Source: a bacterium (GTDB lineage: Bacteria > Sysuimicrobiota > Sysuimicrobiia > Sysuimicrobiales > Humicultoraceae). From it: a stretch of DNA of 64,000 nucleotides. This document shows, piece by piece, positions 1 through 45,170 of this stretch. Made by a program: the position numbers and the translations under genes. The stretch's first letter is position 1. Every line of letters starts with the position of its first letter. Where the stretch lies: assembly GCA_041497675.1 (NCBI GenBank), contig JBGQGY010000003.1:335-64334 (forward strand), in the 5' to 3' direction. Under the pieces are notes generated by a model that searched no databases, was not told the origin of the DNA, and saw nothing but the letters and a program-made list of their open reading frames with translations.

Positions 1-908
1 TTGTCCTCCCCCACCAGCCCCAACCGGTCGATGCCCACCAGCGCGGCCCGCTTGTCCAGGATCCGCATCACGACCTTCTCGCCGAAGACCGTCGGGATCG
101 TCGAGACCCGCAGGTCGATCTCCCGGCCGTCGACGCGCAGTTCGATGCGGCCGTCCTGCGGGAGGCGGCGCTCGGCGATGTTCATGTTGGCCATGATCTT
201 GATGCGGCTCACGCCGGCAGCCTGGACGTGCTTGGGCGCCGTCATCACATTGTAGAGCGTGCCGTCGATCCGATAGCGGATCCGTACCTGGTTCTCCTGC
301 GGCTCCACGTGGATGTCACTGGCGCCCTGCCGCACGGCTTGGACCAGCACGAGGTTGACCAGACGCACGACCGGAGCTTCGTCGACGATCTCGCGGAGCT
401 TGTCGAGCCCGGGCTCGTCTTCCCCGACCTCGGACGGCCGGATCTCCTGGATGACCTGATCCAACGAAGTTTCCAGCGCCGGGTACTGGTTGACCGCGTG
501 CAGGAACCCGTCTTGCGTGATGACGGCCGGAATGAGGTCGCGGTCGGCGATGCGGCGGATGTCATCCAGCGCCAGCACATCGAGCGGATCGACCATCCCG
601 AGCACGAGCGCTTCGCCTTCGGCGCGCAACGGTAGCACCTGATAGCGGCGGATCGCCTGCTCGGGCAGGATCGTCAGGATGTCCTCGGGGATGGTGGTCG
701 CCTGGACGTTCACGTACTCCATGTTCATCTGACTGGCGATCGCCTTGGCGATCGCCTCCGGCGTCGCCAGACCCATTTTGACCAACACTTTGCCCAGCCG
801 GTCGCCAGTCGCATTCTGGGCCTGCAGTGCCTGCTCCAGCTGCGCCTGGGTAATCAGACCGGCTTCGACCAGGACCTCGCCCAGCCGCACCCGCCGGCGA
901 GCGGTCAT
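1..908 (-). CDS. PilB/GspE-family secretion or type IV pilus assembly ATPase, N-terminal ~300 aa; 3' end runs off the window start
   Basis: Translated the minus strand from ATG at 908-906 by hand: MTARRRVRLGEVLVEAGLITQAQLEQALQ... (T2SSE_N-like) ...LVNLVLVQAVRQGASDIHVEPQENQVRIRYRIDGTLYNV...RIKIMANMNIAERRLPQDGRI...IPTVFGEKVVMRIL. About 65% identical over this stretch to the 3318..5654 paralog. Absent from the ORF track because it has no in-window stop. Confidence 0.85.
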   Translation of the reverse strand, partial: MTARRRVRLGEVLVEAGLITQAQLEQALQAQNATGDRLGKVLVKMGLATPEAIAKAIASQMNMEYVNVQATTIPEDILTILPEQAIRRYQVLPLRAEGEALVLGMVDPLDVLALDDIRRIADRDLIPAVITQDGFLHAVNQYPALETSLDQVIQEIRPSEVGEDEPGLDKLREIVDEAPVVRLVNLVLVQAVRQGASDIHVEPQENQVRIRYRIDGTLYNVMTAPKHVQAAGVSRIKIMANMNIAERRLPQDGRIELRVDGREIDLRVSTIPTVFGEKVVMRILDKRAALVGIDRLGLVGED

Positions 909-3007: not shown

Positions 3008-3192
3008 CGGGCAGTTCCCTCCGATATCGGAAATCGGGGATCGTGCCTGACCCGGACTCAGTCAACCCTCTCGCCGTGAACTTCCCAGGAACCTCTCTGA
3101 CGTTGGCTTGCCTCGGGCATAACCTTGTTGCGATTGTGTTCCAATCTTCATCCGGGCAAGTCAGAATATGCCCAGAAGATTGTGGGGCTAGT

Positions 3193-3275
3193 CACGAACG
3201 GGCAAACCCGGAGCGATTCGGGGGCGCAAAACTACGGGACCGGGGAATATACATACCGGTCCCTGTTTTTCTTGG
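3193..3275 (+). promoter_or_regulatory. c-di-GMP-I (GEMM) riboswitch-like element in the 5' leader of the GspE-family ATPase gene
   Basis: CACGAACGGGCAAACC-CGGA-GCGA-UUCGG-GGGCGCAAAACUACGGG then hairpin ACGGGACCGG-GGAAUAUACAUA-CCGGUCCC followed by UGUUUUUCUU. It has the GGCAAACC box, a GNRA-capped first hairpin and a GCGCAAA(G/A)C junction resembling the Vibrio Vc2 aptamer (GGCAAACC AUUC GAAA GAGU GGGACGCAAAGCC). The second hairpin plus U-tract could act as terminator. Confidence 0.6.
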
Positions 3276-3317: not shown

Positions 3318-5654
3318 TTGGATCGGTCCCCGGACGAAGGCGCCATCCAGACTCTGAAAGCTTCCGTTGGCCTGCCCGCGGAGAGCCTGACGCTCGAACG
3401 GGCTTTCCTTCATGCGGAGGCACGCCAGGCCATGCGGTCCGCACAATGGGAGACCGCGCGCGACGCGCTGCAGCGTCTAGCGGCGGCCGATCCAGAGGAA
3501 CCATGGGTCTGCTGGGACCTGGCGGCGGCGTGCCGGGCGCTCGAGGACCACGAAGGCGCAGCTCTCGCGTATCTGACCGCGGCCGACAAGCACCTGGCCC
3601 GCGGCGAGACCGACCAGGTCCTCCAAGCGTACCAGCAGGCCGCCGCGATCTCGCCAAATGATCCGCAGATTCAAGCCAAGCTGGCGGAACCAGCCCCACC
3701 TCCATCGCAGCCCTCGGCAAGCCGGCCGGCAAACGCTTCACCGCGACCGGCGCCGCCCGCCGCGACCACGTCGCCGGAGACCGGTGCGCGTGCCGTGCCG
3801 GAGCGCAGCGACGCTCCGGTATTGCCAACGCCTCCCGGGCCATCGAAGGCCGACAAGCGAGGGGCGGCGGCGCCCGATGCACCTCCCACACCACCCGCGC
3901 GCGAGCCCGTCGACCCAGCATCCCAGGCGGCGCGGGCACCGCGGCCGCGACTGGGCAGCAAAACCGAGACGCTGGGCCAGGTGCTCCAGCAACTGGGCAT
4001 CATCACCGCCCACCAACTCAACGAATCGCTCGAGATTCAGGCGCGCACCGGCGAGCGCATCGGGCAAATCCTGCGCGACATGGGCGTGATCAGCGACACC
4101 GACCTGGCGCGCGCCATGGCGCACCAGTGGGCCTACCCGTACCTCTCCCTGGCGGAGCGGCGGCCAGATACTGAGATCGTCAGGCTGATCCCGCACGCGC
4201 TGGCGATGCGGCACAAGTGCGTCGCCGTCGAGCGCGCCGGGGGCCGGCTGCTCGTCGCGATCAGTGATCCGCTGAACGTCATCGCCGTCGACGACGTCCG
4301 CCTCATCACCGGCATGGAAGTCGACCTCGCGGTCGCCACCGAAGAAGACATCACCACCGCGCTGGCGCGCGGCTATCAGCTGTCCGACACGACGATTGAG
4401 AAGGTCCTGCGCGAGTCCTTACCCGATTCTGCGGGGGATCTCGGCGATGAGGATGTCTCGATCGAGCAGCTGAAGGCGTTGGTTGAGGAAGCGCCTGTCG
4501 TCAAGCTCGTCAACCTCGTAGTGGATGAGGCGGTCAAGCAAGGCGCCAGCGATATCCACGTCGAGCCGCAGCGCAACGGCGTCTGGGTGCGGTTTCGCGT
4601 GGACGGGGTGCTGCGCGACGTGATGAACCCGCCTAAGCACCTGAAGTCGGCGCTCGTCTCGCGCATGAAGATCATGGCTGAGATGGACATCGCCGAGCGC
4701 CGTCGCCCCCAGGATGGGCGCATCCATCTGATCGCCGATGGCCGCAACATCGACCTGCGCGTCTCGACGCTCCCCACGATGTATGGCGAGAAAATCGTGA
4801 TGCGCATCCTGGATCAAGCCCAGACCATGATCGGGCTGACCCGGCTGGGCTTCCACAGTGATACGCTCCGACAGTGGGAGAGCTCGGTCAGCAAACCCCA
4901 CGGGATGGTGTTGGTCACCGGGCCGACCGGGAGCGGGAAGACGACGACCCTCTACGCCACGCTGAGCAAGCTCAACACGCCCGAACTCAATGTCGTGACG
5001 GTCGAGGACCCCGTCGAGTATCAGATCAGCCGTATCAACCAGGTCCAAGTGAACATTAAAGCCGGCATGACCTTTGCCACCGCGCTCCGGCACATCCTGC
5101 GCCAGGACCCAGACATCGTCATGGTCGGTGAGATCCGCGACAAAGACACGGCCGAGATCGCGGTGCAGGCCGCACTCACCGGCCACTTGGTCCTCTCAAC
5201 GCTCCACACCAACGACGCGGCGGGCGCGGTCACGCGGCTGGTCGACATGGGGGTTGAACCGTTCCTGATCAGCTCGTCGGTCATTGGGGTGCTGGCGCAG
5301 CGTCTCGCCCGGGCCATCTGCTCCCGTTGCAAGGTCGCCTACTCGCCGCCACCCGAAGCGCTCGGCCGTCTCGGTGCGGATGTGCGAATCGATTCCGATG
5401 TGACCTTCTATAGAGGCCAAGGCTGCGAGTCGTGCCGCGGCACCGGTTACCGCGGTCGGATCGGCATCTTCGAACTGCTGATCATCAGTGACGCCGTCCG
5501 CGACCTGGTTGTCCACAACGCCTCCTCCACCGAGATCAAGGCGCAGGCGATCCGTGAGGGCATGCGCACGCTGCGGGATGACGGCCTCGAGAAAGTCATG
5601 TCCGGCATCTCCACCATCGACGAGATCCTGCGGGTCGTGTACGTCCAGGACTGA
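3318..5654 (+). CDS. PilB/GspE-family ATPase with N-terminal TPR-like domain and Pro/Ala-rich linker (778 aa)
   Basis: T2SSE_N-like region (LGQVLQQLGIITAHQL...), Walker A GPTGSGKTT, Asp box, Walker B DPDIVMVGEIRD, His box LVLSTLHTND, tetracysteine CSRC...CESC. TTG start at 3318; ATG at 3432 is an alternative. N-terminal ~100 aa TPR-like, then low-complexity P/A-rich segment. Confidence 0.9.
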   Translation: MDRSPDEGAIQTLKASVGLPAESLTLERAFLHAEARQAMRSAQWETARDALQRLAAADPEEPWVCWDLAAACRALEDHEGAALAYLTAADKHLARGETDQVLQAYQQAAAISPNDPQIQAKLAEPAPPPSQPSASRPANASPRPAPPAATTSPETGARAVPERSDAPVLPTPPGPSKADKRGAAAPDAPPTPPAREPVDPASQAARAPRPRLGSKTETLGQVLQQLGIITAHQLNESLEIQARTGERIGQILRDMGVISDTDLARAMAHQWAYPYLSLAERRPDTEIVRLIPHALAMRHKCVAVERAGGRLLVAISDPLNVIAVDDVRLITGMEVDLAVATEEDITTALARGYQLSDTTIEKVLRESLPDSAGDLGDEDVSIEQLKALVEEAPVVKLVNLVVDEAVKQGASDIHVEPQRNGVWVRFRVDGVLRDVMNPPKHLKSALVSRMKIMAEMDIAERRRPQDGRIHLIADGRNIDLRVSTLPTMYGEKIVMRILDQAQTMIGLTRLGFHSDTLRQWESSVSKPHGMVLVTGPTGSGKTTTLYATLSKLNTPELNVVTVEDPVEYQISRINQVQVNIKAGMTFATALRHILRQDPDIVMVGEIRDKDTAEIAVQAALTGHLVLSTLHTNDAAGAVTRLVDMGVEPFLISSSVIGVLAQRLARAICSRCKVAYSPPPEALGRLGADVRIDSDVTFYRGQGCESCRGTGYRGRIGIFELLIISDAVRDLVVHNASSTEIKAQAIREGMRTLRDDGLEKVMSGISTIDEILRVVYVQD

Positions 5655-5747: not shown

Positions 5748-6104
5748 CTAGACGAGCGCGGCAGCCAGCTGGCTGTTACGCCGCATCTCCAACCGGATGC
5801 GACCGAGATTGGCCTGTTTGCCGCCGACGACCACCATCATGGCGTCGGGGCCCGCCGGGCCGACCGCGATCGGACCGTCATCGTACTCGAGCAACATGCT
5901 GCGCATCGCCCCCCGGCTCATTTCGCGTCCCATCGAATCCGCCGCGGCCATGCTGCTGGCCACGATGGCGCCAACGGCCTCCAGGTCGATGGCCTCTTCA
6001 CTCGTCATCCCCTCGACGACAAACCCATCCCGGCCAACGACCAGGACGGCGACGACCCCCTCGACTTTGGCCAGGTCGCTGATGACATCCTTCAGCTGCG
6101 ACAT
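5748..6104 (-). CDS. Roadblock/LC7 (MglB-like) domain protein
   Basis: MSQLKDVISDLAKVEGVVAVLVVGRDGFVVEG...AIDLEAVGAIVASSMAAADSMG...MMVVVGGKQANLGRIRLEMRR matches the Roadblock/LC7 pattern. Internal ATG at 6104 with upstream AGGAGGGGAA; the longer ORF 5748..6248 is an antisense-style extension. Confidence 0.8.
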   Translation of the reverse strand: MSQLKDVISDLAKVEGVVAVLVVGRDGFVVEGMTSEEAIDLEAVGAIVASSMAAADSMGREMSRGAMRSMLLEYDDGPIAVGPAGPDAMMVVVGGKQANLGRIRLEMRRNSQLAAALV

Positions 6105-6153: not shown

Positions 6154-6969
6154 CTACAGTGTTCCGTGCGACGGTACGCCCATGACACCCCGCAGTTTGG
6201 TGAGCGCTGAGGCCAGCACCCGCGAGACATGTTTCTGCGAGATGCCAATTCTCTTTGAGGCTTCGGTCTGGGTGAGATCGGTGTAGAACAGGTAGTAGAC
6301 GACCTTGCGCTGTAGCGAGTTCAGGGATTCCATCGCTTCGACCAGCATCACGCGATCTTCTATGGGTAACTGGAAGCTGATGTGGGATCGGTGCTTGATG
6401 CGCTCTCGGTCGACGCGCAGGTCGCCGCCCTCTTCTTCGGTCTCAAGGGAGATCGTCCGGAGGGCCTCACGGGTACGCAGCACCTCGAGCAGCCCTTCCT
6501 CTTCGATATTGAGCTCGGAGGCCAGCTCTTCCAGCCCGGGAAACCGCCCCTCTTCCGCAACGTATTTGCCGACGGTGTCCTCGATCTGGGTGTTGAGCTT
6601 CTGCAGCCAGCGCGGTTTCCGAATCGTGTCGCGCTGATCCCGCAGGTAATGGCGGATCTCGCCGCGGACCAGATAGCTCGCGTACGTCGCGAACTTCGCG
6701 CCCCGCGTCGGATCGAAGGCCGCGATGGCATTGAGCAACCCGATGTACCCCACCTGCACGAGATCGTCGGTCGGAACACCCGAGAACACAAATTCTGAGG
6801 CGATGCGCCGCACCAGCGGCGTGCACGCGTGGACGACTCGTTCTCGGATCGCTGGGTCGGGGCTCTCGACGTACTGGGCCATCAATACATCTTCGTTCTC
6901 GTGCTCGGTCACACGGGGTGTGATCTGCTCTTGTCGAACCGGTGCGCGTTGCGCGCTGCGGACTGCCAT
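6154..6969 (-). CDS. RNA polymerase sigma factor, sigma-70 family group 3 (SigB/SigF/FliA-like)
   Basis: Region 2 DLVQVGYIGLLNAIAAFDPTRGAKFATYASYLVRGEIRHYLRD; region 4 HTH LTQTEASKRIGISQKHVSRVLASALTKLR. GGAGG lies 6 nt upstream of the ATG at 6969. Confidence 0.85.
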   Translation of the reverse strand: MAVRSAQRAPVRQEQITPRVTEHENEDVLMAQYVESPDPAIRERVVHACTPLVRRIASEFVFSGVPTDDLVQVGYIGLLNAIAAFDPTRGAKFATYASYLVRGEIRHYLRDQRDTIRKPRWLQKLNTQIEDTVGKYVAEEGRFPGLEELASELNIEEEGLLEVLRTREALRTISLETEEEGGDLRVDRERIKHRSHISFQLPIEDRVMLVEAMESLNSLQRKVVYYLFYTDLTQTEASKRIGISQKHVSRVLASALTKLRGVMGVPSHGTL

Positions 6970-6980: not shown

Positions 6981-7022
6981 GAGGAAAAAAGATAAGTCCT
7001 CTCGAGCTGCCCCAAGAGGACC
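6981..7022 (-). terminator. intrinsic terminator forming the expression platform of riboswitch A
   Basis: Minus-strand RNA: AGGUCCUCU-UGGGGCAGCUCG-AGAGGACU UAUCUUUUUUCC, immediately before RBS GGAGG and the sigma factor ATG. Confidence 0.6.
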
Positions 7023-7031
7023 TGATGTTCT

Positions 7032-7110
7032 CCCTTCGGCAGCCCGGCCAACCGTGACGGTCCCGGAGCTTTGCGCCCCCACCTTGCGATGGGTTTGCCC
7101 TTTCGAGGAT
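7032..7110 (-). promoter_or_regulatory. c-di-GMP-I (GEMM) riboswitch-like aptamer A, leader of the sigma factor/Roadblock operon
   Basis: Minus-strand RNA: UCGAAAGGGCAAACC-CAUC-GCAA-GGUGGGG-GCGCAAAGCUCCGGGACCGUCACGGUUGGCCGGGCUGCCGAAGGG. GGCAAACC box, GCAA GNRA-capped hairpin, GCGCAAAGC junction. About 85% identical to element B at 12046..12140. Confidence 0.7.
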
Positions 7111-7257: not shown

Positions 7258-8199
7258 TTACCGGGCCGCGGATGCCCCCGCCGCGGGACGGGATCGGCTG
7301 ACGTACTTGAACGCCAGTCGGTGTGAAACCAGTGCCTCCAGAATGCCCCCGACTTGGGCCGGCGTCAAGCCCGTTTCGGAGGCAATCTCGGCCAGGGTGT
7401 GCGCGCCGTCGAGGAGACGCAGAACCGTCCCGGTGACGCCGTTGCTCACGACCCCGGCGAGCTCCGCGGCGACGTCCGAAGGCAGATTCTCCGCGACACC
7501 CGGCGATAGCAGATACCGTGCCTCCCGGGCGAACCGGCCGAAAACAGCTTCCAGTTCCCGCGACGGCGCTGCGGGCGGTGGCGGCGCGACCTCAGGCTGC
7601 GCACCCGCCTCCTCGACCGCGGCGACCTTGATCGCCGGGACCTCGATCACCGGGACGTCAACCGGCGCAGCGTCGACGGGCGCAACGTCGGCGGGCGCAG
7701 CGTCGACCACCGCAATGGGTTCTGAGGCCGGCGTGACGACTGAGACTGTCTGCGCCTGCAGCGAGCCGGTGATGACGATGATCCATCCCCTGGCCTGCTT
7801 CATGACGGCGCCAGACGTCGCTGCCGACGCCGGCTCGATGACGGCGAGCGCTCCCCCATTGAGGTCCAGCACCGCTGGTTTGGGTCCGAGCACGAGCACT
7901 ACGGCGCTCGCTTGGTCAGACTGTAGACGGGCGATGTAGCGGTCGAGGTGGACGAAGTCAGTATGCAGCGCCGCGCCTGAAAATTCTAGTGACGCGATCC
8001 GCTCCACGACGTCCTTGCGCAGCCGTAACTGAGCGGATTCCGCGCGGGCCGGTGGACCATCGGCGAACACCGCATCCGGCGCGCCGACATGCCAGCCGCT
8101 GGGCCCAAAGACCGCCGCGCAGGGCGTCGATGCTTCGAAAATCGCCGCCACGCCTCCGAGCCAAGCGTAATGAGTAATCCTGGCAGTCGCGGCGGCCAC
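7258..8199 (-). CDS. hypothetical protein with C-terminal HTH-like segment and internal (APVDA)n low-complexity repeat
   Basis: 313-aa ORF with uniform codon use. C-terminal ...VLRLLDGAHTLAEIASETGLTPAQVGGILEALVSHRLAF resembles a winged-helix/HTH. Last gene of the riboswitch-B operon; start is 4 nt after the upstream stop. Confidence 0.55.
   Translation of the reverse strand: MAAATARITHYAWLGGVAAIFEASTPCAAVFGPSGWHVGAPDAVFADGPPARAESAQLRLRKDVVERIASLEFSGAALHTDFVHLDRYIARLQSDQASAVVLVLGPKPAVLDLNGGALAVIEPASAATSGAVMKQARGWIIVITGSLQAQTVSVVTPASEPIAVVDAAPADVAPVDAAPVDVPVIEVPAIKVAAVEEAGAQPEVAPPPPAAPSRELEAVFGRFAREARYLLSPGVAENLPSDVAAELAGVVSNGVTGTVLRLLDGAHTLAEIASETGLTPAQVGGILEALVSHRLAFKYVSRSRPAAGASAAR
7664..7708. 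repeat. 15-bp tandem repeat x3 (ggcgcagcgtcgacg) inside the CDS
   Basis: ggcgcagcgtcgacg / ggcgcaacgtcggcg / ggcgcagcgtcgacc, coding APVDAAPVDAAPVD on the minus strand. Confidence 0.7.
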
Positions 8200-8202
8200 G
8201 AC

Positions 8203-8979
8203 TCAGATGTCCTCCTGTACCGTCCGCTGCCAGAAACCACCCAGCGCGAGAAAGACGAAGCCCGCCACCCACAGCGCATTGATCGTGTGGACTTCCGAGT
8301 AGAGTTCGTACCAGCTGAGAAACGCGTAGCCCAGACTGGCGACCGCCAGACAGAGCGCCGAGGCGGCGACGGCCAGCCAGGTATATGCCGAGGTGCCGCC
8401 GCGAAACCCGACGGCGGGTAGCAACCCCGCGGGCACGAGAAAGACCGCGATGGTCGGATAGAAGACCGCCAGCACCTTCACCGTTGTCGGCGCCGGACTG
8501 GCCATGATCGGGCTCACGATGAACTCGAAGCCAAGCGCCCACCCCACGACACCGAGTCCCACCAGCGCGAGGCGGACCGGGCGATCGACCATTGGTGCAA
8601 CCAACCGGATCTCCAGACCGAGGGCGAGACCAAGCAGCAGGTAGAAGACGACGAAGAACCCGTCGGCGATCGACGGGTACGGCAGTGCCCGTCCCCCCCA
8701 CCATTGGTAGAACGCAAAGACCCCGCGGCCGGCCGCCCAGGCTAGCGCCGCCAGCCCCCCGATGGACCACACCGCGCGCTCGCGATCGCCCGACACGTAG
8801 GCGCGTCGAGCCGCGAGGCACCCGATACCGGCAAGGATCGGCGCAACGATCTGAACTGCCGAGCCCAGCACGTGTCGGGCCAGGCGGCCCTGGAGGCTGG
8901 TTTCTGCCGCACCGTACGCGTAGGCGGCGGCCAGGACAAGGCCGCCCATGACGATGAGCAGCACGCGAAAACGCTTCAT
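8203..8979 (-). CDS. integral membrane protein, ~7 predicted TM helices (258 aa), unknown function
   Basis: MKRFRVLLIVMGGLVLAAAYAY... followed by multiple hydrophobic stretches. ATG at 8979 overlaps the upstream stop (ATGA). The longer 353-aa ORF has an Arg-rich N-terminal extension that looks like antisense or out-of-frame readthrough. Confidence 0.65.
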   Translation of the reverse strand: MKRFRVLLIVMGGLVLAAAYAYGAAETSLQGRLARHVLGSAVQIVAPILAGIGCLAARRAYVSGDRERAVWSIGGLAALAWAAGRGVFAFYQWWGGRALPYPSIADGFFVVFYLLLGLALGLEIRLVAPMVDRPVRLALVGLGVVGWALGFEFIVSPIMASPAPTTVKVLAVFYPTIAVFLVPAGLLPAVGFRGGTSAYTWLAVAASALCLAVASLGYAFLSWYELYSEVHTINALWVAGFVFLALGGFWQRTVQEDI

Positions 8980-9830
8980 CGAGCCGCTCCGGAGTCGCCG
9001 GCACCTGCCGCGTCGCGTTCGGCTGCGGCAATCGCCCGGTCGACGAACGCACGACCGGCGACGGCGATGATCGGTTCGCACGCCGTCTCGACGATGACCC
9101 GCCACGACGCCTCGGAGATCGGAGGCGCATACACGCGGGTTCCGTCGACCCGGCCGCCATGCGGCGCGAGCGCGGCGGCGAGCGTCGATGTGAACCGCTG
9201 GGCGAGCCGCTGGCCGCGATGACGCGCTACCCGTTCGGCCACGCCTTCCATGGTGCGCGGCCACGGTCGGGTCGACGCCTCAACGGGGGCCACGGGTTCC
9301 GTCGCCACCACGCGCTCGCCGGCAGCAGTCGCTCGCGCTGGCGGCGCTTCGCTCACCGGGGCGACCGGCTCGACGACCGGCGGAGCGGTCACCACCTCAG
9401 CCACCTCCGCCGGCTCAACCGCTGGCATCGACTGCGACGTCACGAGGCTCTGCCCTGGGACTTTGAAGACCGTCGCCGGGGCTGCGGACGGTGGGCCCGC
9501 CGCCTGTCCGAAGGCGACGTCTGGCGGCGCGCCCACATACACGCTCAGCGTCGAACCGTTTGACGCCATCTCGCGGAAGAGGTCGTGCCCGCCGGCACCG
9601 GCCAGCACGGCCTCTCCGCCGTCAACGTCAAAGAACCAGGCGTCCTGCGCCTCGCCCTCGTGCACCCAGACCAGGCTCTCCATTTCGAGGTCGGCGAGGT
9701 AGATGCCGCCTTCAAACCCGCGGCCGATCAAATGCGCCAGCAGCCCGTCGATATCCACCGCATCGCCGGGGAAGTCGGTGACTAAGGCCGGTCCGGCCCG
9801 GAGCACTTCGAGTGCTTGACGCCGGTTCAC
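8976..9830 (-). CDS. hypothetical protein, DUF4388-like N-terminal motif (tentative), Pro/Ala/Val-rich middle
   Basis: GDAVDIDGLLAHLIGRGFEGGIYL resembles the DUF4388 G-x-x-x-F-x-L-x-D-L-L-Q-x-L...G-x-L signature as I recall it. Probable GTG start at 9830, with AGGAG 5 nt upstream and 8 nt after the TAXI gene stop. Confidence 0.5.
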   Translation of the reverse strand: MNRRQALEVLRAGPALVTDFPGDAVDIDGLLAHLIGRGFEGGIYLADLEMESLVWVHEGEAQDAWFFDVDGGEAVLAGAGGHDLFREMASNGSTLSVYVGAPPDVAFGQAAGPPSAAPATVFKVPGQSLVTSQSMPAVEPAEVAEVVTAPPVVEPVAPVSEAPPARATAAGERVVATEPVAPVEASTRPWPRTMEGVAERVARHRGQRLAQRFTSTLAAALAPHGGRVDGTRVYAPPISEASWRVIVETACEPIIAVAGRAFVDRAIAAAERDAAGAGDSGAAR

Positions 9831-9838
9831 GTGAGCTC

Positions 9839-10810
9839 CTACTTGATGCCTCGCTCCCTGTAGAAACGCAGAGCGCCGGCATGCATCGTAATTGGCATCC
9901 CCGAGCGTGACGTGTTGGTCGTAATGTCCTTGCCGCGCGCATGGGCGGCCTGCAATCGGTCGGTGTTGGTCCACAGCGCCGAGGTCAACGTGTAGATCAG
10001 GGCTTCCTCGATGTCCTGACGCGTCACCAGCATCGCCATCACCGCTGCGGTATCCACTGACTCGGTCTGGCCCTTGTAGGTGTTGGCCGGTACCGTCACG
10101 CGTGTGTAATAGGGGTACTGCTCGCGCAGCATCTCCACGACGTCTCTTGGGATCGCCAGGACCTTCAGGTCGCGGCTGGACGCGATATCCTGTACAGCCG
10201 CTGTCGGGAACCCCGCTGTAATGAACGCCGCGTCGATCACGCCATCCTTCAACTGATCGGCGGCCTCGGCGAAGTTCAGGAAGTCCGGCCGCGTGTTGTA
10301 ATAGCCGAGTTCAAACGCGCGGAGAATCTGACGCGCGTTGATCTCGGTGCCGCTGCCCGGCGCGCCGACGGCGATGCGCTTGCCCTTGAGATCGGCGATC
10401 GAATTGATGTTCTTGGACTTCAGCGTGACGACCTGAATCGTCTCCGGATACAACATCGCCATGCCTCGAAGATTCGCGATCGGCTGGGTCTTGTTGGCGA
10501 CGCGATCCATAAACATCTCGGTCCCGTGGAAGGCGTAGTAGGTGATATCGTTCTGGATGAACGCCACCGCCACGTCGCTCCGCTGTAGCAGGCGGATGTT
10601 GGCGACCGAGGCGCCGGACGTCTGCGCCGTCGCCTGGACGTTTGGCACCTTGCCGCTCCACACTTCCGCCAGCGCCGCGCCCAACGGGAAGTAGACACCC
10701 GCCGTGCCGCCCGTTGCAATGGCGACAAACGTGCGCTGTTGGGCCATGGCGGGCCAGACGGCTACGCTGAGCACCGCCAGTATGACGATTCCGAGTGTGA
10801 TCCGACGCAT
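9839..10810 (-). CDS. TAXI-family TRAP transporter solute-binding protein (orphan, no DctQM permease adjacent)
   Basis: Signal peptide MRRITLGIVILAVLSVAVWPAMA; VAIATGGTAGVYFPLGAALAEV matches the TAXI signature. Start codon choice among M1, M9 and M16 is uncertain. Confidence 0.8.
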   Translation of the reverse strand: MRRITLGIVILAVLSVAVWPAMAQQRTFVAIATGGTAGVYFPLGAALAEVWSGKVPNVQATAQTSGASVANIRLLQRSDVAVAFIQNDITYYAFHGTEMFMDRVANKTQPIANLRGMAMLYPETIQVVTLKSKNINSIADLKGKRIAVGAPGSGTEINARQILRAFELGYYNTRPDFLNFAEAADQLKDGVIDAAFITAGFPTAAVQDIASSRDLKVLAIPRDVVEMLREQYPYYTRVTVPANTYKGQTESVDTAAVMAMLVTRQDIEEALIYTLTSALWTNTDRLQAAHARGKDITTNTSRSGMPITMHAGALRFYRERGIK

Positions 10811-10858
10811 GTGCGCTCTCCTCCTCATCATCGTGTCGAACGGATGGACCCTCATACG

Positions 10859-11983
10859 CTATCGCTGGATAATCTCAAACTGTCCTTGGTGCACTCGGGC
10901 CACGGCTACCGGGCGGGACGGCACACCCCATCGATCAAGGGTGATCTGACCGGTCACACCGGGAAACTTCCGGAGCCCCTGCAGCGCGGTCTTGATCGCG
11001 ACGGGGCTTCTGTCACCACGGCGCATCGTGGACGCCAGCATCTTCACCGCATCGTAGGCCTGTGCCGCGAAATGGTCCGGCGTCTCGTTGAACTTCTTCC
11101 GATACTTGGCCCCGAACTCTTGGACGATCGGTAGCGGATCGCTGGCCACAAACGGCGCAGGCAAGAGCACATCCTCCGCGTAGATTTTGGCCCACGCCAC
11201 GAGATCGGTCGAATACAGCGCGTCGGATCCCACGATCGGCACCCGAACGCCGCGGCCTTTGAGCGCCGCCACGATCAACGCGCCCTCATCCGGGTACCCG
11301 GCCACAAAGACCGCGTCCGCCCCGTCGGCGAGCACGCCGGTCACGTGACGGGTGAAGTCGGTGTCCCCGTCGTGGTAGAGCCTCGTGCCGACGACCCGAC
11401 CACCCAACCCCTTGATCCGCTCGGCAAATGCGAGGGCGACCATGGTGCCGTACTCGTTGGCATCGTGGATGATGGCCAACCGGCGCGTATTCCGGGTACG
11501 CACAAGAAAATCCGCGAGGGTGCGCGCCTGAGCTTCAGCGGACAGCGACGTGCGGAAAAACGAGGACCCCGAGTAGGGAATCGTCCCGGTAGCGCCTGGG
11601 CTGACCAGGGGGATCCCCGCGCGCTCAGCCATCGGCGCGACGGCCAGCGCGGTCGCGTCCGTCACCGGTCCCACCACGGCGACGATCTTTTGCTTCACCA
11701 GATGCTCGAACTGCTTTGCGGCCTCATCGGCGGTGCCGCGATCGTCCTGCACCATCAGCGTGATCGACGCGCCGCCGACCCCACCCGAGGCGTTGATCTC
11801 TTCAGCGGCGAGCGTGGCACCCTGCACGACGGACTTGGCCGCGGCGGGCACGCCGCTATTGAGCGGCGCCAGGATGCCGATAATAACTGACTCCTGCGCC
11901 CGGAGCGCGGCGCTGGGACCGCAGGCGGAGGTCGCGAGCGCTGCGAAGATGATCGCCGCGGCCCCGAGTGTCATCGTTTTCAT
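10859..11983 (-). CDS. type 1 periplasmic binding protein (LivJ/branched-chain amino acid-like), lipoprotein; orphan SBP
   Basis: MKTMTLGAAAIIFAALATSAC (lipobox), then a PBP1 Leu/Ile/Val-binding-like fold (IVAVVGPVTDATALAVAPMAERAGIPLVSP...). First gene downstream of riboswitch B. Confidence 0.75.
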   Translation of the reverse strand: MKTMTLGAAAIIFAALATSACGPSAALRAQESVIIGILAPLNSGVPAAAKSVVQGATLAAEEINASGGVGGASITLMVQDDRGTADEAAKQFEHLVKQKIVAVVGPVTDATALAVAPMAERAGIPLVSPGATGTIPYSGSSFFRTSLSAEAQARTLADFLVRTRNTRRLAIIHDANEYGTMVALAFAERIKGLGGRVVGTRLYHDGDTDFTRHVTGVLADGADAVFVAGYPDEGALIVAALKGRGVRVPIVGSDALYSTDLVAWAKIYAEDVLLPAPFVASDPLPIVQEFGAKYRKKFNETPDHFAAQAYDAVKMLASTMRRGDRSPVAIKTALQGLRKFPGVTGQITLDRWGVPSRPVAVARVHQGQFEIIQR

Positions 11984-11997: not shown

Positions 11998-12036
11998 GTG
12001 AACACAAAATGCCTTTCGGCCGCCTGCCGAAAGGCA
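11998..12036 (-). terminator. intrinsic terminator forming the expression platform of riboswitch B
   Basis: Minus-strand RNA: AUGCCUUUCGGC-AGGCG-GCCGAAAGGCAU UUUGUGUUC. Perfect 12-bp stem plus U-tract, 15 nt before the SBP ATG. Confidence 0.65.
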
Positions 12037-12045
12037 TACCACGCC

Positions 12046-12140
12046 TGCCCCTTCGGCAACCCGGCCGGCCGCGCGGTTGGACGTCCCGCGCGCCCCCGTG
12101 GCTTTGCGTCCCCACCTTGCGATGGGTTTGCCCGTTCGGA
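12046..12140 (-). promoter_or_regulatory. c-di-GMP-I (GEMM) riboswitch-like aptamer B, leader of the SBP/DUF4388/7TM operon
   Basis: Minus-strand RNA: CCGAACGGGCAAACC-CAUC-GCAA-GGUGGGG-ACGCAAAGCCACGGGGGCGCGCGGGACGUCCAACCGCGCGGCCGGCCGGGUUGCCGAAGGGG. It has the GGCAAACC box, a GNRA-capped hairpin and GGGACGCAAAGCC, which matches the Vc2 junction exactly. Confidence 0.75.
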
Positions 12141-12261
12141 GGCTCTATGCAGTTTGCGGTGCTACCTTTTCTCTACCCCGCCGCGGCTTCGCCTAGACCT
12201 CTGCCTACCCTCCAACAGATGTCCCGAGAGTTGCGGCAGGGTTCCTCCAAGAAGCCATACG

Positions 12262-13191
12262 CTAGAGCGAGAGCAATCGACGGTACAGCTGCGTGACGTT
12301 GTAGACGTACCACTTGGTCTCGTCATAGGGCGGGATGCCTTCATAGCGTTCCACCGCGGCGCGGCCCGCATTGTACGCGGCCAGGGCGAGATGCACGTTG
12401 TCGTATCCGAACCGATCGAGGTTGCCACGCAAGTACCGGATCGTCCCGTAGAGGTTTTGCACGGGATCCTGTGGATCGACGCCCAATGCCCGCGCTGTAT
12501 CCGGCATCAACTGGCCCAATCCCAGTGCCCCCGCCCGCGACGTCACATGCGGTTGGAATCCGGACTCGACCACGACGAGAGCCACGACCAAACGCGGGTC
12601 GATGTTGAATCGATACGAGTATCCGAGCAGCGCCTGCGCGATCTTCTCTGCAACCTCGGGCTGGAGTCTCGGGTTGTAGTAACGCGCGAGCTGCGTATAG
12701 CTCTCAATCGTCGTGACCCACGCCGGCGCCGTCGGTGCGCCGCCCTTCAACGCCGCCAGTTTTGGCACGGGCTTGACGACCCGTAGCCCCTGCAGCGCCA
12801 GCTCGTGGATGCGGTCAGATCCTGGTGCCAGCAGGGCGCGCTGAAACGCCACCTCGGCCTCCCCGGACCGGCCGCCCTGGGCGAGGACGTATCCCCACCA
12901 CAACAGCACGGTGGAATCGCGTGGCGCCAGACGGACCGCCGATTCAAGCACCTGCACCGCCAGCCGTGGCTCGCCCCGATAGTGGTAGACGATCCCAAGC
13001 CACAACCAGCCCTCGGGGTCACTCGGCCGCTGCGCAACCTCGCGGGTGAAGACCGCTTCGGCGTCGCGCAGGCGGCCCTGTGCGACCAGCGCCGCGCCCT
13101 CCCGGAGCGCCGCCGGACCGCTCGGGGCCGCGACGGCCGAGCCGGCCGCAAGAGTGATCAGCAACACGAGCAGGATCACGCCGGTCTTCAT
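12262..13191 (-). CDS. TPR-repeat lytic transglycosylase (SLT domain)
   Basis: Signal/TM MKTGVILLVLLITLAAGSAVA, TPR-like repeats, then an SLT core VVVESGFQPHVTSRAGALGLGQLMPDTA...AYNAG. ATG at 13191 overlaps the Roadblock stop. Confidence 0.8.
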   Translation of the reverse strand: MKTGVILLVLLITLAAGSAVAAPSGPAALREGAALVAQGRLRDAEAVFTREVAQRPSDPEGWLWLGIVYHYRGEPRLAVQVLESAVRLAPRDSTVLLWWGYVLAQGGRSGEAEVAFQRALLAPGSDRIHELALQGLRVVKPVPKLAALKGGAPTAPAWVTTIESYTQLARYYNPRLQPEVAEKIAQALLGYSYRFNIDPRLVVALVVVESGFQPHVTSRAGALGLGQLMPDTARALGVDPQDPVQNLYGTIRYLRGNLDRFGYDNVHLALAAYNAGRAAVERYEGIPPYDETKWYVYNVTQLYRRLLSL

Positions 13192-13547
13192 CCCAGTTGC
13201 TCCACGATCTCGGCCTTCCGGCGCCGTATCTGCAGCCGTGCCCGGGCCAGATTGCCGCCGGCATCGAGCACGGTCGCCACATAGTGTATCTGGCTCACCG
13301 CCATCACCAAGACCGCCAGGCTTTCGGTCGTGAGCGTCACGTAGTCCAGATCCCCGCCCTCGAGCTTCCGAGTGCAATAGGCCCCCACTTTGATCAGCGC
13401 GGCCAGGTCGACACTGGCTTTGGAGAGGTCGCTCGGGCCGCCCTTCGTCACCGCCTCGATGACAGTACCATCCATTGCCACGACCGCGGCGGCACGCGTG
13501 TCGTCGCCCACGAGCTCCTGCAAGATGCCTCTTAGTTTGGTTCCCAT
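13188..13547 (-). CDS. Roadblock/LC7 (MglB-like) domain protein, second copy
   Basis: MGTKLRGILQELVGDDTRAAAVVAMDGTVIEAV...VDLAALIKVGAYCTRKL...LAVLVMAVSQIHYVATVLDAGGN. Start taken at M47 of the listed ORF; M33 at 13589 is an alternative. Confidence 0.75.
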   Translation of the reverse strand: MGTKLRGILQELVGDDTRAAAVVAMDGTVIEAVTKGGPSDLSKASVDLAALIKVGAYCTRKLEGGDLDYVTLTTESLAVLVMAVSQIHYVATVLDAGGNLARARLQIRRRKAEIVEQLG

Positions 13548-13651
13548 GCTCGGCCCCGGGCGGCCGTCAGTGTTCGCCAATGACCCCATGCCTCCTGCCG
13601 AGAAGAGGAATTGTCGATGGCGGCATCGTAGCATCGCCCGGGGAAGGTGAC

Positions 13652-14620
13652 ATGCACACCGCGTTGATCGAACGCATCCGCACACATCGCCGGATCCTGA
13701 CCAGCCGTTGGTCGAAGGCCCTGAAAGAGGCCCCCGGCGCGAACCCGTGGTGGCAAGACACTGAACGGACCGATCGACTCCTGTTCGCCGGCCTTGAAGC
13801 CCTGATCGAGGCCGTGAGCTCCGGCAACGATGAGTTGTTCGTCGCCTTCGCCTCGCGCCTCAGCCAGGAGGCCTTCGCGCTCCAGGTTCCACCCAATGTC
13901 GTCATCCGCGCCATCCTGACCGGAAAGGTCATTGTCACCGAGTTCCTGACCGAACCCGACTCCTCGCCTGGCCTCGACGTCGCCACCGTGCAGTCGCTCG
14001 ATCGGGTCGTCTCCGCCGGCATCCTCGAAGGGATCCGGCGGCACGAACGACAGCGCGAACGCCGGCTGCTCACCGCGCAAGAGCAGCTCGAGCAGCTGCG
14101 CGACCGCCTCCGCCGTCAGGTCGTTGTCGACCCGGCGACGGGTCTCTACAACGCCAACTACTACTCGATCGCCGTGCGCCGCGAAGTTCGCCGTAGCCAG
14201 CGGTTCGGCCGCGTCTTTTCGCTCGCCCTCGTCGCCCCCGACAAAGATGACGGGGTCCGCGACGCCTGGGGCGACGAAGGTCTGCGTGCCGTGTCGATCA
14301 CACTCGCCGACATCCTGACCCGCTGCACCCGGCAGGTCGATCTGCGGGCGGCGCTCGGCGGCGTCCGCTTCGGTCTGATCCTGCCTGAAACGCCGATGGA
14401 GGGCGCGTTCGTGCTCGCCGAGCGCATCCGCGTCGCGGTCGAACAGCAGGCGTTCACACTCCCCGATCACCCATCCCCCGTGACACAGACTGTCAGTATC
14501 GGGCTGGCGAGTTTCCCCCGCGATGCCGAAGATGACCGAGGGATGCTCTCCCGGCTCGAAGAGGCCCTGGCGCGCGCTCGCGGTGGCGGCAACACGACCG
14601 TCGCTGCCGCGTCGGCATAG
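13652..14620 (+). CDS. GGDEF-domain protein with degenerate active site (GGVRF) and intact RxxD I-site; probable c-di-GMP receptor
   Basis: DPATGLYNANYYSIAVRREV...RQVDLRAALGGVRFGLILPET. RQVD lies 5 aa before GG(V)(R)F. Internal ATG (MHTALIERIRT) chosen because the upstream part of the ORF overlaps the divergent Roadblock gene. Confidence 0.75.
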   Translation: MHTALIERIRTHRRILTSRWSKALKEAPGANPWWQDTERTDRLLFAGLEALIEAVSSGNDELFVAFASRLSQEAFALQVPPNVVIRAILTGKVIVTEFLTEPDSSPGLDVATVQSLDRVVSAGILEGIRRHERQRERRLLTAQEQLEQLRDRLRRQVVVDPATGLYNANYYSIAVRREVRRSQRFGRVFSLALVAPDKDDGVRDAWGDEGLRAVSITLADILTRCTRQVDLRAALGGVRFGLILPETPMEGAFVLAERIRVAVEQQAFTLPDHPSPVTQTVSIGLASFPRDAEDDRGMLSRLEEALARARGGGNTTVAAASA

Positions 14621-14641: not shown

Positions 14642-16264
14642 TTATCGCTCCCGCCACAGGCGTAGTTGCACTTCGAACGGCGGTTTTACCTGCAGCACCC
14701 TGAGAAACACGTCGACCAGTTCCGGATCCAGCGTCGTCCCGGCCAGCGCACGCAGTTCATCCATCGCTTCGGCGACGGTCCGGCCACGGCGGTACGGACG
14801 GTCGGATATCATCGCATCAAACGTCTCTGCCACGCGTATGATGCGGGCACCCAGCGGAATCGCGTCGCCCGCAAGCCCGTCCGGGTAGCCGCTGCCGTCG
14901 TACGCTTCTTGATGGTGCTTCACGTCGTCAACCAGCGGACGAAACGGCGCCATCTCGCGGAGAATGGCCGCGCCGCGTTCGGGGTGCTGGTTCATCGCCT
15001 TGCGCTCGTCATCGCTGAGCGCGGCGCGCTTGCGCAGCACGCCCTCCGGCGCGCTGATCTTCCCGATATCATGGAGGAGGCTCGCCCACTGGATGCGCTC
15101 AACCTCTCCAGGGGGCAGGCCGATCTCCGTCGCGACGGCCACCGCATTGGCGGCCACGCGCTGTGAGTGCCCCTGCGCGTAGGGATCCTTGGCCTCCAGC
15201 GCCGCAGCCAGGGTGTTCACGGCGCTCAGCAAGAACTCACGCGATTGACTGTGCATTTGCGCGTCATGCAATGGAGGCGACGCCATCTCGGCCAGGGTAT
15301 ACGTCGCGCCCAGATGCTCGTCCCTGAAGAGCCGGATCCCGCGCCGTGCCAAGTGCACCACGCCAAACGATCGCTCGGCCGCGCGCAGCGGCACGAGCAG
15401 CGCCGATCCCGTCGCATCGTCGCCAAATACGCTCACCCACCGTGCGTCCGTCGACGCGTCGACGACCAGTTGTGGCAGACCGGAGCGCATGGCCTCCTCG
15501 ACCACGGCCGCTGAGTCCAGCACCTCTCCACGCGCGCGGAGCCTGCCGGCGGCGTCGAGACCGGCTTCGATGACCAGCCGCTGCTCGATATCCAGCACGG
15601 CGACCAGTCCGTAGTCCGCGTCGGCCAGATGCAGCGACCGATCGAGGAGCCTGCGGGCGCGATCGGCCAACGGCTGCCCGGCCATGGCGGTCAAGGTCGC
15701 GTGGATCTGCGCGGACACGTGCACGCGCCGGTTGAGTTCCTCGGCGCCGCGCAGCGCCGATTGCATCGCTTCAGTACGACGCTGTTCCATGAACCCGACG
15801 AGCAGTCCGATCAGCATCAGCAGCGCGGCCCTGGGGAGGATCCCCGCGGCAGGTTGGGAGTGGAGCGTAATCGCGGCCGCGTACCCCAGGGCAGAGACCC
15901 AACCGCCGACGACTCCCGCCACCAGACCGCGCCCGGCCGTCCCCCAGATCAGCACCGGCACATAGAAGAAAAAGAAGAAGCTCGTCATCCCGCCGGTCTC
16001 GCCCACGAGCAAGGACACGATGAGTAGCTCGAGGATCGTGCCGACGTAGGAGGCGACGTGCGGCCCAGACTGGCTGGGCGCCAGCGCGCTCAGCAGCCCG
16101 GCTGGGAACAGGAGCAATAGGAGAAGCGCGGAGGTGAGGCTGGGGCTCGCACGGTCGGTCTGTGTCCCGATCAACAGGACCGAAAACCCAAACAGTACCG
16201 CCAACCCGCGGAGATAGAGCGCCCACCATTCGAAGGGGGCCTTCTGGGCCGCCGATTTCATCAC
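14642..16264 (-). CDS. membrane-anchored GAF/HD-GYP c-di-GMP phosphodiesterase
   Basis: N-terminal multi-TM region, a GAF-like middle, HD (LHDIGK) and HHEAYDGSGYP (HD-GYP signature). Confidence 0.8.
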   Translation of the reverse strand: MMKSAAQKAPFEWWALYLRGLAVLFGFSVLLIGTQTDRASPSLTSALLLLLLFPAGLLSALAPSQSGPHVASYVGTILELLIVSLLVGETGGMTSFFFFFYVPVLIWGTAGRGLVAGVVGGWVSALGYAAAITLHSQPAAGILPRAALLMLIGLLVGFMEQRRTEAMQSALRGAEELNRRVHVSAQIHATLTAMAGQPLADRARRLLDRSLHLADADYGLVAVLDIEQRLVIEAGLDAAGRLRARGEVLDSAAVVEEAMRSGLPQLVVDASTDARWVSVFGDDATGSALLVPLRAAERSFGVVHLARRGIRLFRDEHLGATYTLAEMASPPLHDAQMHSQSREFLLSAVNTLAAALEAKDPYAQGHSQRVAANAVAVATEIGLPPGEVERIQWASLLHDIGKISAPEGVLRKRAALSDDERKAMNQHPERGAAILREMAPFRPLVDDVKHHQEAYDGSGYPDGLAGDAIPLGARIIRVAETFDAMISDRPYRRGRTVAEAMDELRALAGTTLDPELVDVFLRVLQVKPPFEVQLRLWRER

Positions 16265-41531: not shown

Positions 41532-42446
41532 TCAGGTCATCTGCGCGCCGGCCCGCGTTCTGCGCGGGTCGATCGCATCCTGCAGTCCATCGGCGAAGTA
41601 GTTCAGCGCGATCACCACGACCGTGAGGGCGGCGCCGGGAAAGATCCCGTAGGTCGGCGACCGATAGAGGTAGCTCTGCGCCGCCGTCAGCATGTTGCCC
41701 CACGATGCGGTGGGTGGCTGGCTCCCCAGCCCAAGATAGCTGAGCGACGCCTCGACCAGAATCGCGGCCGGCGCCGCAATCGCCATCTGCACGACGACGA
41801 GCGACAGGCAGTTCGGGAGGATGGTCCTGAACATGATCCGCGCGTTGGGCGCGCCGATCGCCCGCGCGGCCTCCACAAAATCCTTGCCCCTCAGCGCAAT
41901 CGTCGACGCCCGGACCAGCCGCGCAAAGGTCGGCAAATTGATGATCGCCACGGCCAGGACGGCGTTCAGGTACCCGGGCCCGATGATCGTCACGATGCCG
42001 ATGGCCAGGAAGATAGCGGGAAAGGCGAGCAGCGTATCCCAGATGCGTGAGATGATCGCGTCGATCCACCCGCCCAGGTATCCCGACACCAGTCCGCCAG
42101 CCACGCCCACGATGCCCGCCAGTCCCACGGCCAGCACGCCGGCCGCCAGCGACACGCGCGCGCCGTGGATCACCCGGCTCAAGATATCGCGCCCCAACTC
42201 GTCGGTCCCCCACCAGAATCGCGCCGAGGGCGGTGCGAGCTGTGCGTCGAGGTGCAGCTCGATCGGATTGTATGGCGTCACCCGCGGACCAACGATCGCC
42301 ACTAGGATGAAGACCAGCAGGCACACGGTCCCGACGGCGCCTTTGCGCTCGCGCATCAACCGCCGCAGGATGGCGGCCGCCGGGCGCCCGACCGCCGCCC
42401 GGCTATCGGGCTTCTTCGAGTTTGACGCGGGGATCGAGGTAGCCAT
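41532..42446 (-). CDS. ABC transporter permease (DppC/OppC-like)
   Basis: Six TM helices; EAA-like motif region ...ARAIGAPNARIMFRTILPN. Confidence 0.8.
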   Translation of the reverse strand: MATSIPASNSKKPDSRAAVGRPAAAILRRLMRERKGAVGTVCLLVFILVAIVGPRVTPYNPIELHLDAQLAPPSARFWWGTDELGRDILSRVIHGARVSLAAGVLAVGLAGIVGVAGGLVSGYLGGWIDAIISRIWDTLLAFPAIFLAIGIVTIIGPGYLNAVLAVAIINLPTFARLVRASTIALRGKDFVEAARAIGAPNARIMFRTILPNCLSLVVVQMAIAAPAAILVEASLSYLGLGSQPPTASWGNMLTAAQSYLYRSPTYGIFPGAALTVVVIALNYFADGLQDAIDPRRTRAGAQMT

Positions 42447-43356: not shown

Positions 43357-43452
43357 GTCACGCCTCCCCGGACGCGAACGTCAACGAACACACTGCCGCC
43401 GGTGCGTCGTCATGGTTCGACGGCACCGACGGCAGCGTCGCGTGAGCAAGCC

Positions 43453-45018: not shown

Positions 45019-45170
45019 CTCATCCTCCTTCTCTGTATTGCAGGCGACGCTGTCGCCTGTTAGCCCAAAGGCTTCTCCGCGTCAACCACCCTACCTGTTG
45101 GTTGCGAGGATCCACCCCAGGGGGGCAGAGGGCCGTGCGCAACGTTACGTTCCATCGGTGGATGAGTGAT

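Follow-up and report, generated by a model that had tools for sequence, protein, structure and literature searches.

Among the riboswitches that respond to cyclic di-GMP (c-di-GMP), those with a transcription terminator can act as OFF switches, as Cd1 of Clostridioides difficile does in repressing the flagellar operon. Here we describe riboswitch B, an element of comparable build, located in a 64-kb window (the whole stretch of DNA analysed, from contig JBGQGY010000003.1) of a member of the uncultured phylum CSP1-3/Sysuimicrobiota, together with the five genes behind it, g1 to g5. The reading that we favour, with a probability of about 0.6, is that riboswitch B is a c-di-GMP OFF switch heading a membrane signalling module composed of g3, g4 and g5, to which the two solute-binding proteins (SBPs) encoded by g1 and g2 would be accessory. 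The riboswitch class is already known and the regulated module is uncharacterised; what is new here is the g3-g4-g5 module, g4 as a putative stand-alone sensor domain, an island with three aptamers, and a natural interchange of A47 and G47 in the aptamer.

The type example of the c-di-GMP-I class (RF01051) is Vc2 of Vibrio cholerae, according to the summary of Sudarsan et al. (2008) given in PMC7266159. Aptamer B, the ligand-binding part of riboswitch B, has the architecture of Vc2, with P1, P1b closed by a GNRA tetraloop, and P2, and its junction GGGACGCAAAGCC bears the equivalents of G20, A47 and C92. It differs from Vc2 in (i) its host phylum, (ii) the genes that follow it, which encode two SBPs and three uncharacterised proteins, (iii) being one of three GEMM-type aptamers within a single island and (iv) the replacement of A47 by G47 in some of its orthologs. 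Cd1 (see also the review PMC11477304) likewise carries an intrinsic terminator behind a class-I aptamer; the ligand brings about premature termination and expression occurs at low c-di-GMP. The same logic is predicted for riboswitch B, but its polarity is a prediction only and its cargo is not flagellar.

On the protein side, SBPs are coupled to sensors in LuxP-LuxQ, TorT-TorS and ChvE-VirA, and the class C G-protein-coupled receptors (GPCRs) combine a Venus-flytrap domain with a bundle of seven transmembrane (7-TM) helices. At the present locus, too, a LivJ/ANF_receptor-type protein is encoded with a 7-TM sensor-type protein; however, g4 has no fused output, the SBPs are dispensable in relatives and no homology to those receptors is claimed. 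The products of g1 and g2 are clear members of the families to which the LIV-type ATP-binding cassette (ABC) protein 4gnr and the TAXI proteins 1us4/1us5 of the tripartite ATP-independent periplasmic (TRAP) transporters of Thermus thermophilus belong, and unlike in those systems no membrane or ATPase subunits are encoded in the operon or the 64-kb window. MASE-type domains (MASE1-MASE12) are recognised as membrane domains joined to varied outputs (bioRxiv 10.1101/2021.11.05.467447). The g4 family is similarly promiscuous, being found N-terminal to HisKA/HATPase_c, GGDEF, EAL, PAS and HAMP domains, whereas g4 itself stands alone and possesses an extra N-terminal transmembrane (TM) helix.

An initial annotation, made from the sequence of the window, had stated that this gene set is not a known target of c-di-GMP riboswitches. 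The statement was checked against the literature alone, where no matching report was found: our searches yielded no account of this gene set, or of c-di-GMP signalling or riboswitches in CSP1-3/Sysuimicrobiota, and no paper combining Armatimonadota, c-di-GMP and riboswitch, and the paper describing CSP1-3 makes no mention of c-di-GMP, pili or TRAP. By linkage to the riboswitch, three proteins of unknown function would be assigned to a c-di-GMP regulon.

Identity and predicted switching of riboswitch B

The covariance model RF01051 scored aptamer B at 57.5 bits (gathering score 35, E 1.3e-8), and its sister model RF03167 gave 56.4 bits, under the RF03167 cut-off of 59. The junction GGGACGCAAAGCC quoted in the initial annotation was present in the minus-strand sequence 12142..12000. 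When aligned to RF01051, aptamer B showed a G at the G20-equivalent, within CGGGCAAAC, and an A at the A47-equivalent, within GGGGACGCAAAGCC; its 3' UUGCC segment was invariant across the aligned orthologs, and P1b was capped by a GCAA tetraloop. In the numbering of Vc2, where we take G20, A47 and C92 to make the ligand contacts, the combination of G20, A47 and 3' UUGCC is, as judged by sequence, the canonical c-di-GMP signature. Orthologs of aptamer B reached the Rfam thresholds in 12 related genome loci, and a consensus fold of 14 orthologs contained 31 predicted pairs; in eight of these, chiefly within P2 and P1b, both partners have changed and the pairing is kept. Because of this recurrence and covariation, aptamer B is more than a chance match. 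Riboswitch B thus appears to be a genuine, canonical class-I c-di-GMP riboswitch with a transcription-terminator expression platform, for which ligand binding is predicted.

A terminator with a 12-bp stem, anticipated in the initial annotation, was found by a consensus scan at 12037..12009 (-); its G+C-rich hairpin lies directly before the U-tract UUUUGUGUU, as is expected of an intrinsic terminator. The stem was retained in 17 of 19 orthologous leaders, with tails that are U-rich but interrupted. Across these 17 leaders the 5' arm is near-invariant (GCCUU[U/C]CGG), the 3' arm varies between A and G opposite U, and one position is altered on both sides, from U-A/U-G to C-G. Such a contrast between an invariant 5' arm and a varying 3' arm would be expected of a 5' arm that can pair with either of two partners. 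The 5' arm UGCCUUUCGGC (also given as CCUUUCGG) is complementary to the aptamer 3' strand GCCGAAGGGGCA, and termination is therefore predicted when c-di-GMP is bound. With the 11-bp antiterminator forced, the leader folded at -79.6 kcal/mol compared with -81.6 kcal/mol for the terminator state, a gap of 2 kcal/mol that makes the two states nearly isoenergetic. The antiterminator duplex of the window itself had an energy of -18.1 kcal/mol, as against -7.4 +/- 2.2 kcal/mol for shuffled arms, and all 12 SBP-containing leaders tested gave z-scores between -2.1 and -4.8 (-2.1 to -4.7 in the 11 leaders besides the window). These pair statistics were computed per sequence; MAFFT shifted some arms by one base.

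We infer from these features that riboswitch B is probably an OFF switch. In the proposed mechanism, c-di-GMP binding would cause the aptamer to retain its 3' strand GCCGAAGGGGCA in P1/P2, the hairpin AUGCCUUUCGGC/GCCGAAAGGCAU would form and transcription would end before g1. Without ligand, the same strand would pair with the terminator 5' arm and the polymerase would read through into g1-g5.

Organization of the operon and its conserved core

The annotated layout, in which the riboswitch and terminator are followed by five tightly packed minus-strand genes (11983..7258), was borne out (Table 1). The spacing is 48 nucleotides (nt) between g1 and g2, 8 nt between g2 and g3 and 3 nt between g4 and g5, with a 4-nt ATGA overlap of g3 and g4, and the G+C content at third codon positions is 0.76-0.83 in each gene. 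The overlap and short gaps indicate that g1-g5 are presumably co-transcribed as an operon, and the tight g3-g4-g5 junctions suggest translational coupling.

Both SBP assignments were upheld. The g1 protein matched Peripla_BP_6 (PF13458) at 1.5e-61 (209 bits against a cut-off of 31.7) and, also in Pfam, ANF_receptor at 4.7e-22; its lipobox Cys is conserved among orthologs, and the solved structures most like it are those of branched-chain amino-acid SBPs (4gnr, 2.6e-40). The g2 protein matched TIGR02122 at 2.4e-103 (345 bits against 84) and PF16868 (288 bits against 27). It has a signal peptide that is conserved in orthologs, and among solved structures it comes closest to the T. thermophilus TAXI protein 1us4 (2.8e-56). 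With 70-98% identity among orthologs, no other protein of the operon is as well conserved.

The two cytoplasmic proteins were less readily placed. In the g3 protein a disordered Pro/Ala-rich linker (108-179) separates an alpha/beta N-domain (residues 1-107) from a helical C-domain (185-280). It had been called DUF4388-like, a label that we have dropped since none of 24 orthologs matched a Pfam family, PF14332 included, at E<=10. The predicted order of elements, beta-alpha-beta4-alpha-beta, would be compatible with DUF4388/PATAN; a search of g3 against the PDB found no fold match with which to compare it. The g5 protein begins with a conserved N-domain (about 1-165) and ends in a winged-helix-like C-terminal domain (about 250-300), the two being joined by a variable Pro/Ala-rich linker. 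Its C-terminal segment matched HTH_47 in 8 of 13 orthologs (best E 7.8e-5, under the Pfam cut-offs) and HTH_IclR at 1.4e-3, under the curated cut-off. For the helix-turn-helix that the earlier description gave to g5, the observation is a weak, recurring winged-helix signal in which every match is sub-threshold. The idea that g3 and g5 are paralogs was rejected, as hhalign returned only a 34-column local match with a probability of 9%, their common three-part layout notwithstanding.

A scan of genomes of GTDB species yielded 16 related loci and a metagenome scan 16 more of the same operon, and these were compared by tblastn and Rfam. Several of the related genomes are assigned to Candidatus Fervidifonticultor, in the NCBI phylum Candidatus Sysuimicrobiota, formerly CSP1-3 (PMC11604079). 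The gene order proved to be conserved: riboswitch B and g3-g4-g5 are kept in about 30 loci from metagenome-assembled genomes (MAGs) of CSP1-3/Sysuimicrobiota, and the SBP pair is not universal. Wherever present, the pair lies between the expression platform and g3. In L015, L016, L017, L018, L033 and L034, and probably in L032, aptamer B stands directly before g3 with no SBP genes. Since several loci lack both SBP genes, the conserved cargo of riboswitch B is g3-g4-g5 and the SBPs are accessory; the proposal that orphan SBPs define the system is weakened by these seven loci, which keep riboswitch B and the three genes. The SBP pair may be either a clade-specific insertion or have been lost in the other clade. 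A natural deletion was seen in Candidatus Fervidifonticultor quintus, where the spacer between the lytic transglycosylase (SLT) gene and g3 (L012:5074-5223) contains only the aptamer remnants CCGAACGGG ... GCCGAGAGGG ... GGCCUUUCC and fragments of the terminator arm; the aptamer core and both SBP genes are gone, leaving g3-g4-g5 without a riboswitch.

The membrane protein g4 and its relatives

The AlphaFold model of g4 (pLDDT 87, pTM 0.87) contains eight helices, all hydrophobic enough to span the membrane, and g4 had no match in Pfam or NCBIfam. Its sequence also occurs on a JGI metagenome contig and in a Logan assembly, the samples concerned being JGI 3300052992 and SRR29604911. At the cluster level 65 homologs were found, with 47-96% identity and nearly all of about 250-260 amino acids (aa); where a source is named, as it is for a few of them, the entry is a hypothetical protein of 'Armatimonadota', 'Armatimonadetes' or an unclassified bacterial MAG.

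A profile built from 31 orthologs and searched against 1.84 billion representative proteins retrieved 1124 relatives at E<=1e-3, 106 of them at E<=1e-10. Most are stand-alone proteins of 250-280 aa, but the best 150 include about 30 with lengths of 430-920 aa, in which the g4-like region forms the N-terminus. Pfam domains in 36 long relatives were HATPase_c (13), HisKA (12), GGDEF (12) and EAL (5), in addition to PAS and HAMP, and no Pfam family covered the membrane part of these 36 proteins. Examples with library-wide E-values of 4e-14 to 5e-12 are P0157 (GGDEF-EAL), P0170 (GGDEF), P0173 (PAS-GGDEF-EAL) and the histidine kinases P0153 and P0179. Matches to the fused proteins begin at profile position about 36-45, from which it follows that the common core is TM2-TM8 and TM1 an add-on. 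The label of 7-TM protein given to g4 in the initial annotation is thus inexact for the whole protein, with its eight predicted helices, and apt for this conserved core, whose seven helices run from outside to inside.

Given that histidine kinases and GGDEF/EAL proteins of other bacteria begin with the g4 core, g4 is best described, on sequence grounds, as a free-standing copy of a widespread MASE-like 7-TM sensor or input domain that has no Pfam model. No named MASE family was matched among the models in Pfam and NCBIfam, to which the comparison was confined. Foldseek against the PDB gave a best E of 0.07 and a TM-score of about 0.5 to proteorhodopsins; in view of this lack of a significant match, the likeness of g4 to GPCRs appears to reflect a generic bundle topology. 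Outside the membrane g4 is predicted to expose very short loops, of 5-9 residues. As a sensor domain without a fused output, g4 may offer a handle on how such domains signal.

Two further architectures were observed in the family. In P0135 the g4-like domain is duplicated in tandem, and the closest longer relatives, P0121, P0122, P0125 and P0129 (E 1e-40 to 1e-21), consist of a g4-like domain, an extra TM helix and a helical C-domain of ~90 aa. These C-terminal extensions were considered as g3- or g5-like and discarded, as they have no Pfam domain and no resemblance by eye; the layout is, from its sequence features, a further uncharacterised architecture of the g4 sensor domain. The gene context of the distant g4 homologs L035-L051 was likewise set aside as a functional lead, the neighbours there encoding xanthine-dehydrogenase-like enzymes, M16 peptidases, a radical SAM protein and a LysR regulator.

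Alternative explanations

If riboswitch B heads a signalling module, g3-g4-g5 would be a membrane signal-transduction unit made at low c-di-GMP, and in the clade of the window a LivJ-like lipoprotein and a TAXI protein, both amino-acid-type SBPs, would be co-regulated with it. A number of observations weigh against this interpretation. Neither g3 nor g5 has detectable homologs of known function in the Pfam, PDB fold and ortholog searches, so the evidence for their signalling role is gene linkage. Distant stand-alone homologs of g4 on soil contigs (24-30% identity) occur in unrelated contexts, without g3, g5 or aptamers. The U-tail of the terminator is imperfect (UUUUGUGUU), the antiterminator duplex of the SBP-less clade is not stronger than that of shuffled controls (z about -0.9), no recognisable terminator was found behind aptamer B in L018 (9146-9330), and L028 (2746-2884) has another hairpin, GAUGGCCAUC followed by GGUUUCUUUGU; as L018 and L028 differ in this way, the expression platform is not uniform across the clade. 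The imperfect tail and the weak pairing would also suit a riboswitch in which c-di-GMP promotes expression, or a hairpin that acts on translation, and both polarities occur in the c-di-GMP-I class. We nevertheless consider such an arrangement unlikely: the terminator lies wholly downstream of the aptamer and has no strand in common with P1, it is the terminator 5' arm and not the 3' arm that is complementary to the aptamer 3' strand, which is the usual OFF arrangement, and the Shine-Dalgarno-like GGCGGUG downstream of the hairpin is not sequestered by it.

The roles of the SBPs can be read in more than one way. In a pure transport role, g1 and g2 would serve LivHMGF-type ABC and TAXI-TRAP permeases whose genes lie in other parts of the genome, the riboswitch would tie amino-acid uptake to low c-di-GMP and g3-g5 would be unrelated to the SBPs in function. 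Both proteins are indeed full-length members of transport SBP families with an export signal, the solved structures closest to them are of transport SBPs, g2 is strongly conserved, as would suit a docking partner under constraint, and g3-g5 occur without adjacent SBP genes in the seven loci. However, the SBP pair occupies the same place in all SBP-containing loci, and the initial annotation was correct in finding no cognate permease or ATPase genes, which are absent from the operon, from the scanned open reading frames (ORFs) of the window and from the flanks of about 30 related loci. A Pfam search of about 30 large ORFs of the window detected no BPD_transp_2 (LivH/M) and no DctQ/DctM, and the window contains no paralogs of g1 or g2; we regard transport as possible but on the unlikely side. 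Another view is that the exported SBPs bind amino acids, dock on the outer face of g4, which would signal via g3 and g5, much as in LuxP-LuxQ or TorT-TorS or, loosely, a split class C GPCR. It draws on the ANF_receptor match of g1, on the g4 family being a sensor input domain, and on the conserved location of the SBPs and their co-regulation with g4; yet the short extracellular loops of g4, the weak Foldseek result, the module without SBPs in several species and the absence of SBP genes beside the distant g4 homologs seen all speak against it, and we hold it to be doubtful. The sensory role put forward in the initial annotation is accordingly favoured for g4, by virtue of its homologs at the N-terminus of histidine kinases and GGDEF/EAL proteins, but not in its SBP-centred form.

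Returning to g3-g4-g5 as a riboswitch-controlled membrane module, a bolder version of it, which we put forward as speculative, is that the three proteins constitute an undescribed three-component system of a stand-alone 7-TM sensor and two dedicated cytoplasmic partners, one of them DNA-binding, that is repressed by c-di-GMP at the level of RNA and in one clade uses amino-acid-binding SBPs as extracellular receptors. If true, SBP-coupled or class-C-GPCR-like sensing would here have a split bacterial counterpart, with feedback on the adjoining genes for the sigma factor, type IV pilus and c-di-GMP.

Among the about 30 ORFs of the window that were scanned, the only transport genes of this kind are an Opp/Dpp-like SBP gene with two BPD_transp_1 genes, plus several major facilitator superfamily transporters. 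The Opp/Dpp-type cluster (SBP_bac_5 and the two BPD_transp_1 genes, 41532..45081 (-)) has no adjacent ABC ATPase genes and lies next to genes for an acyltransferase-like protein and GFO/IDH/MocA oxidoreductases.

Variation at the ligand-contact positions

At the site of aptamer B, the 14 orthologs compared carry G47, the 'GGC' signature, in three species (Table 1) and A47 in 11. The occurrence of both bases at an orthologous site suggests that the GGC change at A47 may leave the ligand unaltered, and this natural swap bears on whether the 'c-di-GMP-I-GGC' class truly has another ligand. In the ortholog at L007:6844-6939 we observed an A at the G20-equivalent (CGAGCAAAC), the change linked with cGAMP-selective GEMM-Ib RNAs (cGAMP, cyclic GMP-AMP); as it comes from a single MAG, it could be an assembly or strain variant.

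The c-di-GMP island around the operon

Genomes of CSP1-3/Sysuimicrobiota share a conserved c-di-GMP island in which, as gene order and aptamer matches indicate, three units are each headed by a riboswitch, the riboswitch B operon being one of them (Table 1). The first half of the conserved order comprises the genes for GAF-HD-GYP, GGDEF (on the opposite strand), a Roadblock-like protein and the SLT-TPR lytic transglycosylase, and ends at aptamer B; after it come g1 and g2 (where present), g3, g4, g5, aptamer A, a SigB/F/G-type sigma factor gene and a Roadblock/LC7 gene. In longer loci a TPR-MshEN-T2SSE (PilB/MshE-like) ATPase gene is nearby, usually behind aptamer C and at varying distance and on either strand, and it adjoins a DnaB_C/AAA_25 ATPase gene. 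MshEN is a c-di-GMP-binding domain. Enzymes that make and break c-di-GMP thus adjoin three RNA sensors of it, and riboswitch B marks a compact island in a widespread uncultured phylum, with an inventory of three GEMM-type aptamers, GGDEF, HD-GYP, a sigma factor, Roadblock proteins and a PilB/MshE-like ATPase.

Table 1. Coordinates of riboswitch B, its operon, the surrounding island and the G47-bearing orthologs of aptamer B. Positions are those of the window unless a locus is named.
Feature	Position	Strand	Remarks
Aptamer B (riboswitch B), c-di-GMP-I (GEMM-I)	12052..12142	-	Rfam RF01051
Aptamer 3' strand GCCGAAGGGGCA	12046..12057	-	3' side of P2/P1; predicted alternative partner of terminator 5' arm
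Intrinsic-terminator hairpin AUGCCUUUCGGC-AGGCG-GCCGAAAGGCAU	12009..12037	-	12 pairs, 7 G-C, loop of 5
U-rich terminator tail UUUUGUGUU	12000..12008	-	
g1, LivJ-type (Peripla_BP_6/ANF_receptor) lipoprotein SBP	10859..11983	-	374 aa
g2, TAXI-family TRAP SBP	9839..10810	-	323 aa; signal peptide
g3, cytoplasmic protein of unknown family	8976..9830	-	284 aa
g4, integral membrane protein	8203..8979	-	258 aa; 8 predicted TM helices
g5, cytoplasmic protein	7258..8199	-	313 aa
TPR-SLT lytic transglycosylase	12262..13191	-	directly upstream of riboswitch B
Small Roadblock-like gene	13188..13550	-	no Pfam match; conserved in all loci
GGDEF protein	13655..14620	+	upstream of riboswitch B
GAF-HD-GYP phosphodiesterase	14642..16264	-	upstream of riboswitch B
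Aptamer A, c-di-GMP-I-GGC variant	7034..7108	-	RF03167, 63.5 bits against 59; G at A47 position
Aptamer A terminator	7023..6994	-	U6 tail
SigB/F/G-type sigma factor gene	6969..6154	-	behind aptamer A
Roadblock/LC7 (MglB-like) gene	6104..5748	-	behind sigma factor gene
Aptamer C, GEMM-like	3192..3274	+	RF03168, 36 bits, sub-threshold in window; junction GGGGGCGCAAAAC
TPR-MshEN-T2SSE (PilB/MshE-like) ATPase gene	3318..5654	+	778 aa; downstream of aptamer C
Aptamer B ortholog with G47	L004:6757-6852		
Aptamer B ortholog with G47	L008:2881-2976		
Aptamer B ortholog with G47	L009:6962-7057		

Aptamer A passed the RF03167 gathering score in all 14 of the genome loci (among L003-L018) that reach its site, and a GGC-type junction was found at the same site in metagenome loci. 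Aptamer A may follow the OFF logic proposed for riboswitch B, as is suggested by a possible antiterminator duplex of -18.5 kcal/mol. Orthologs of aptamer C scored over the Rfam thresholds in L008, L010, L015 and L018, and in the window its P2-like hairpin GGGACCGG..CCGGUCCC lies directly before UGUUUUUCUU, as if doubling as a terminator.

Further PilB-like sequences were noted near the island. At the edge of the window a partial second PilB-like ORF (15..884 (-)) is 44% identical to residues 219-512 of the 778-aa ATPase, and in L004 and L006 a second, weaker match to this ATPase (about 50% identity) lies just past the DnaB_C/AAA_25 gene.

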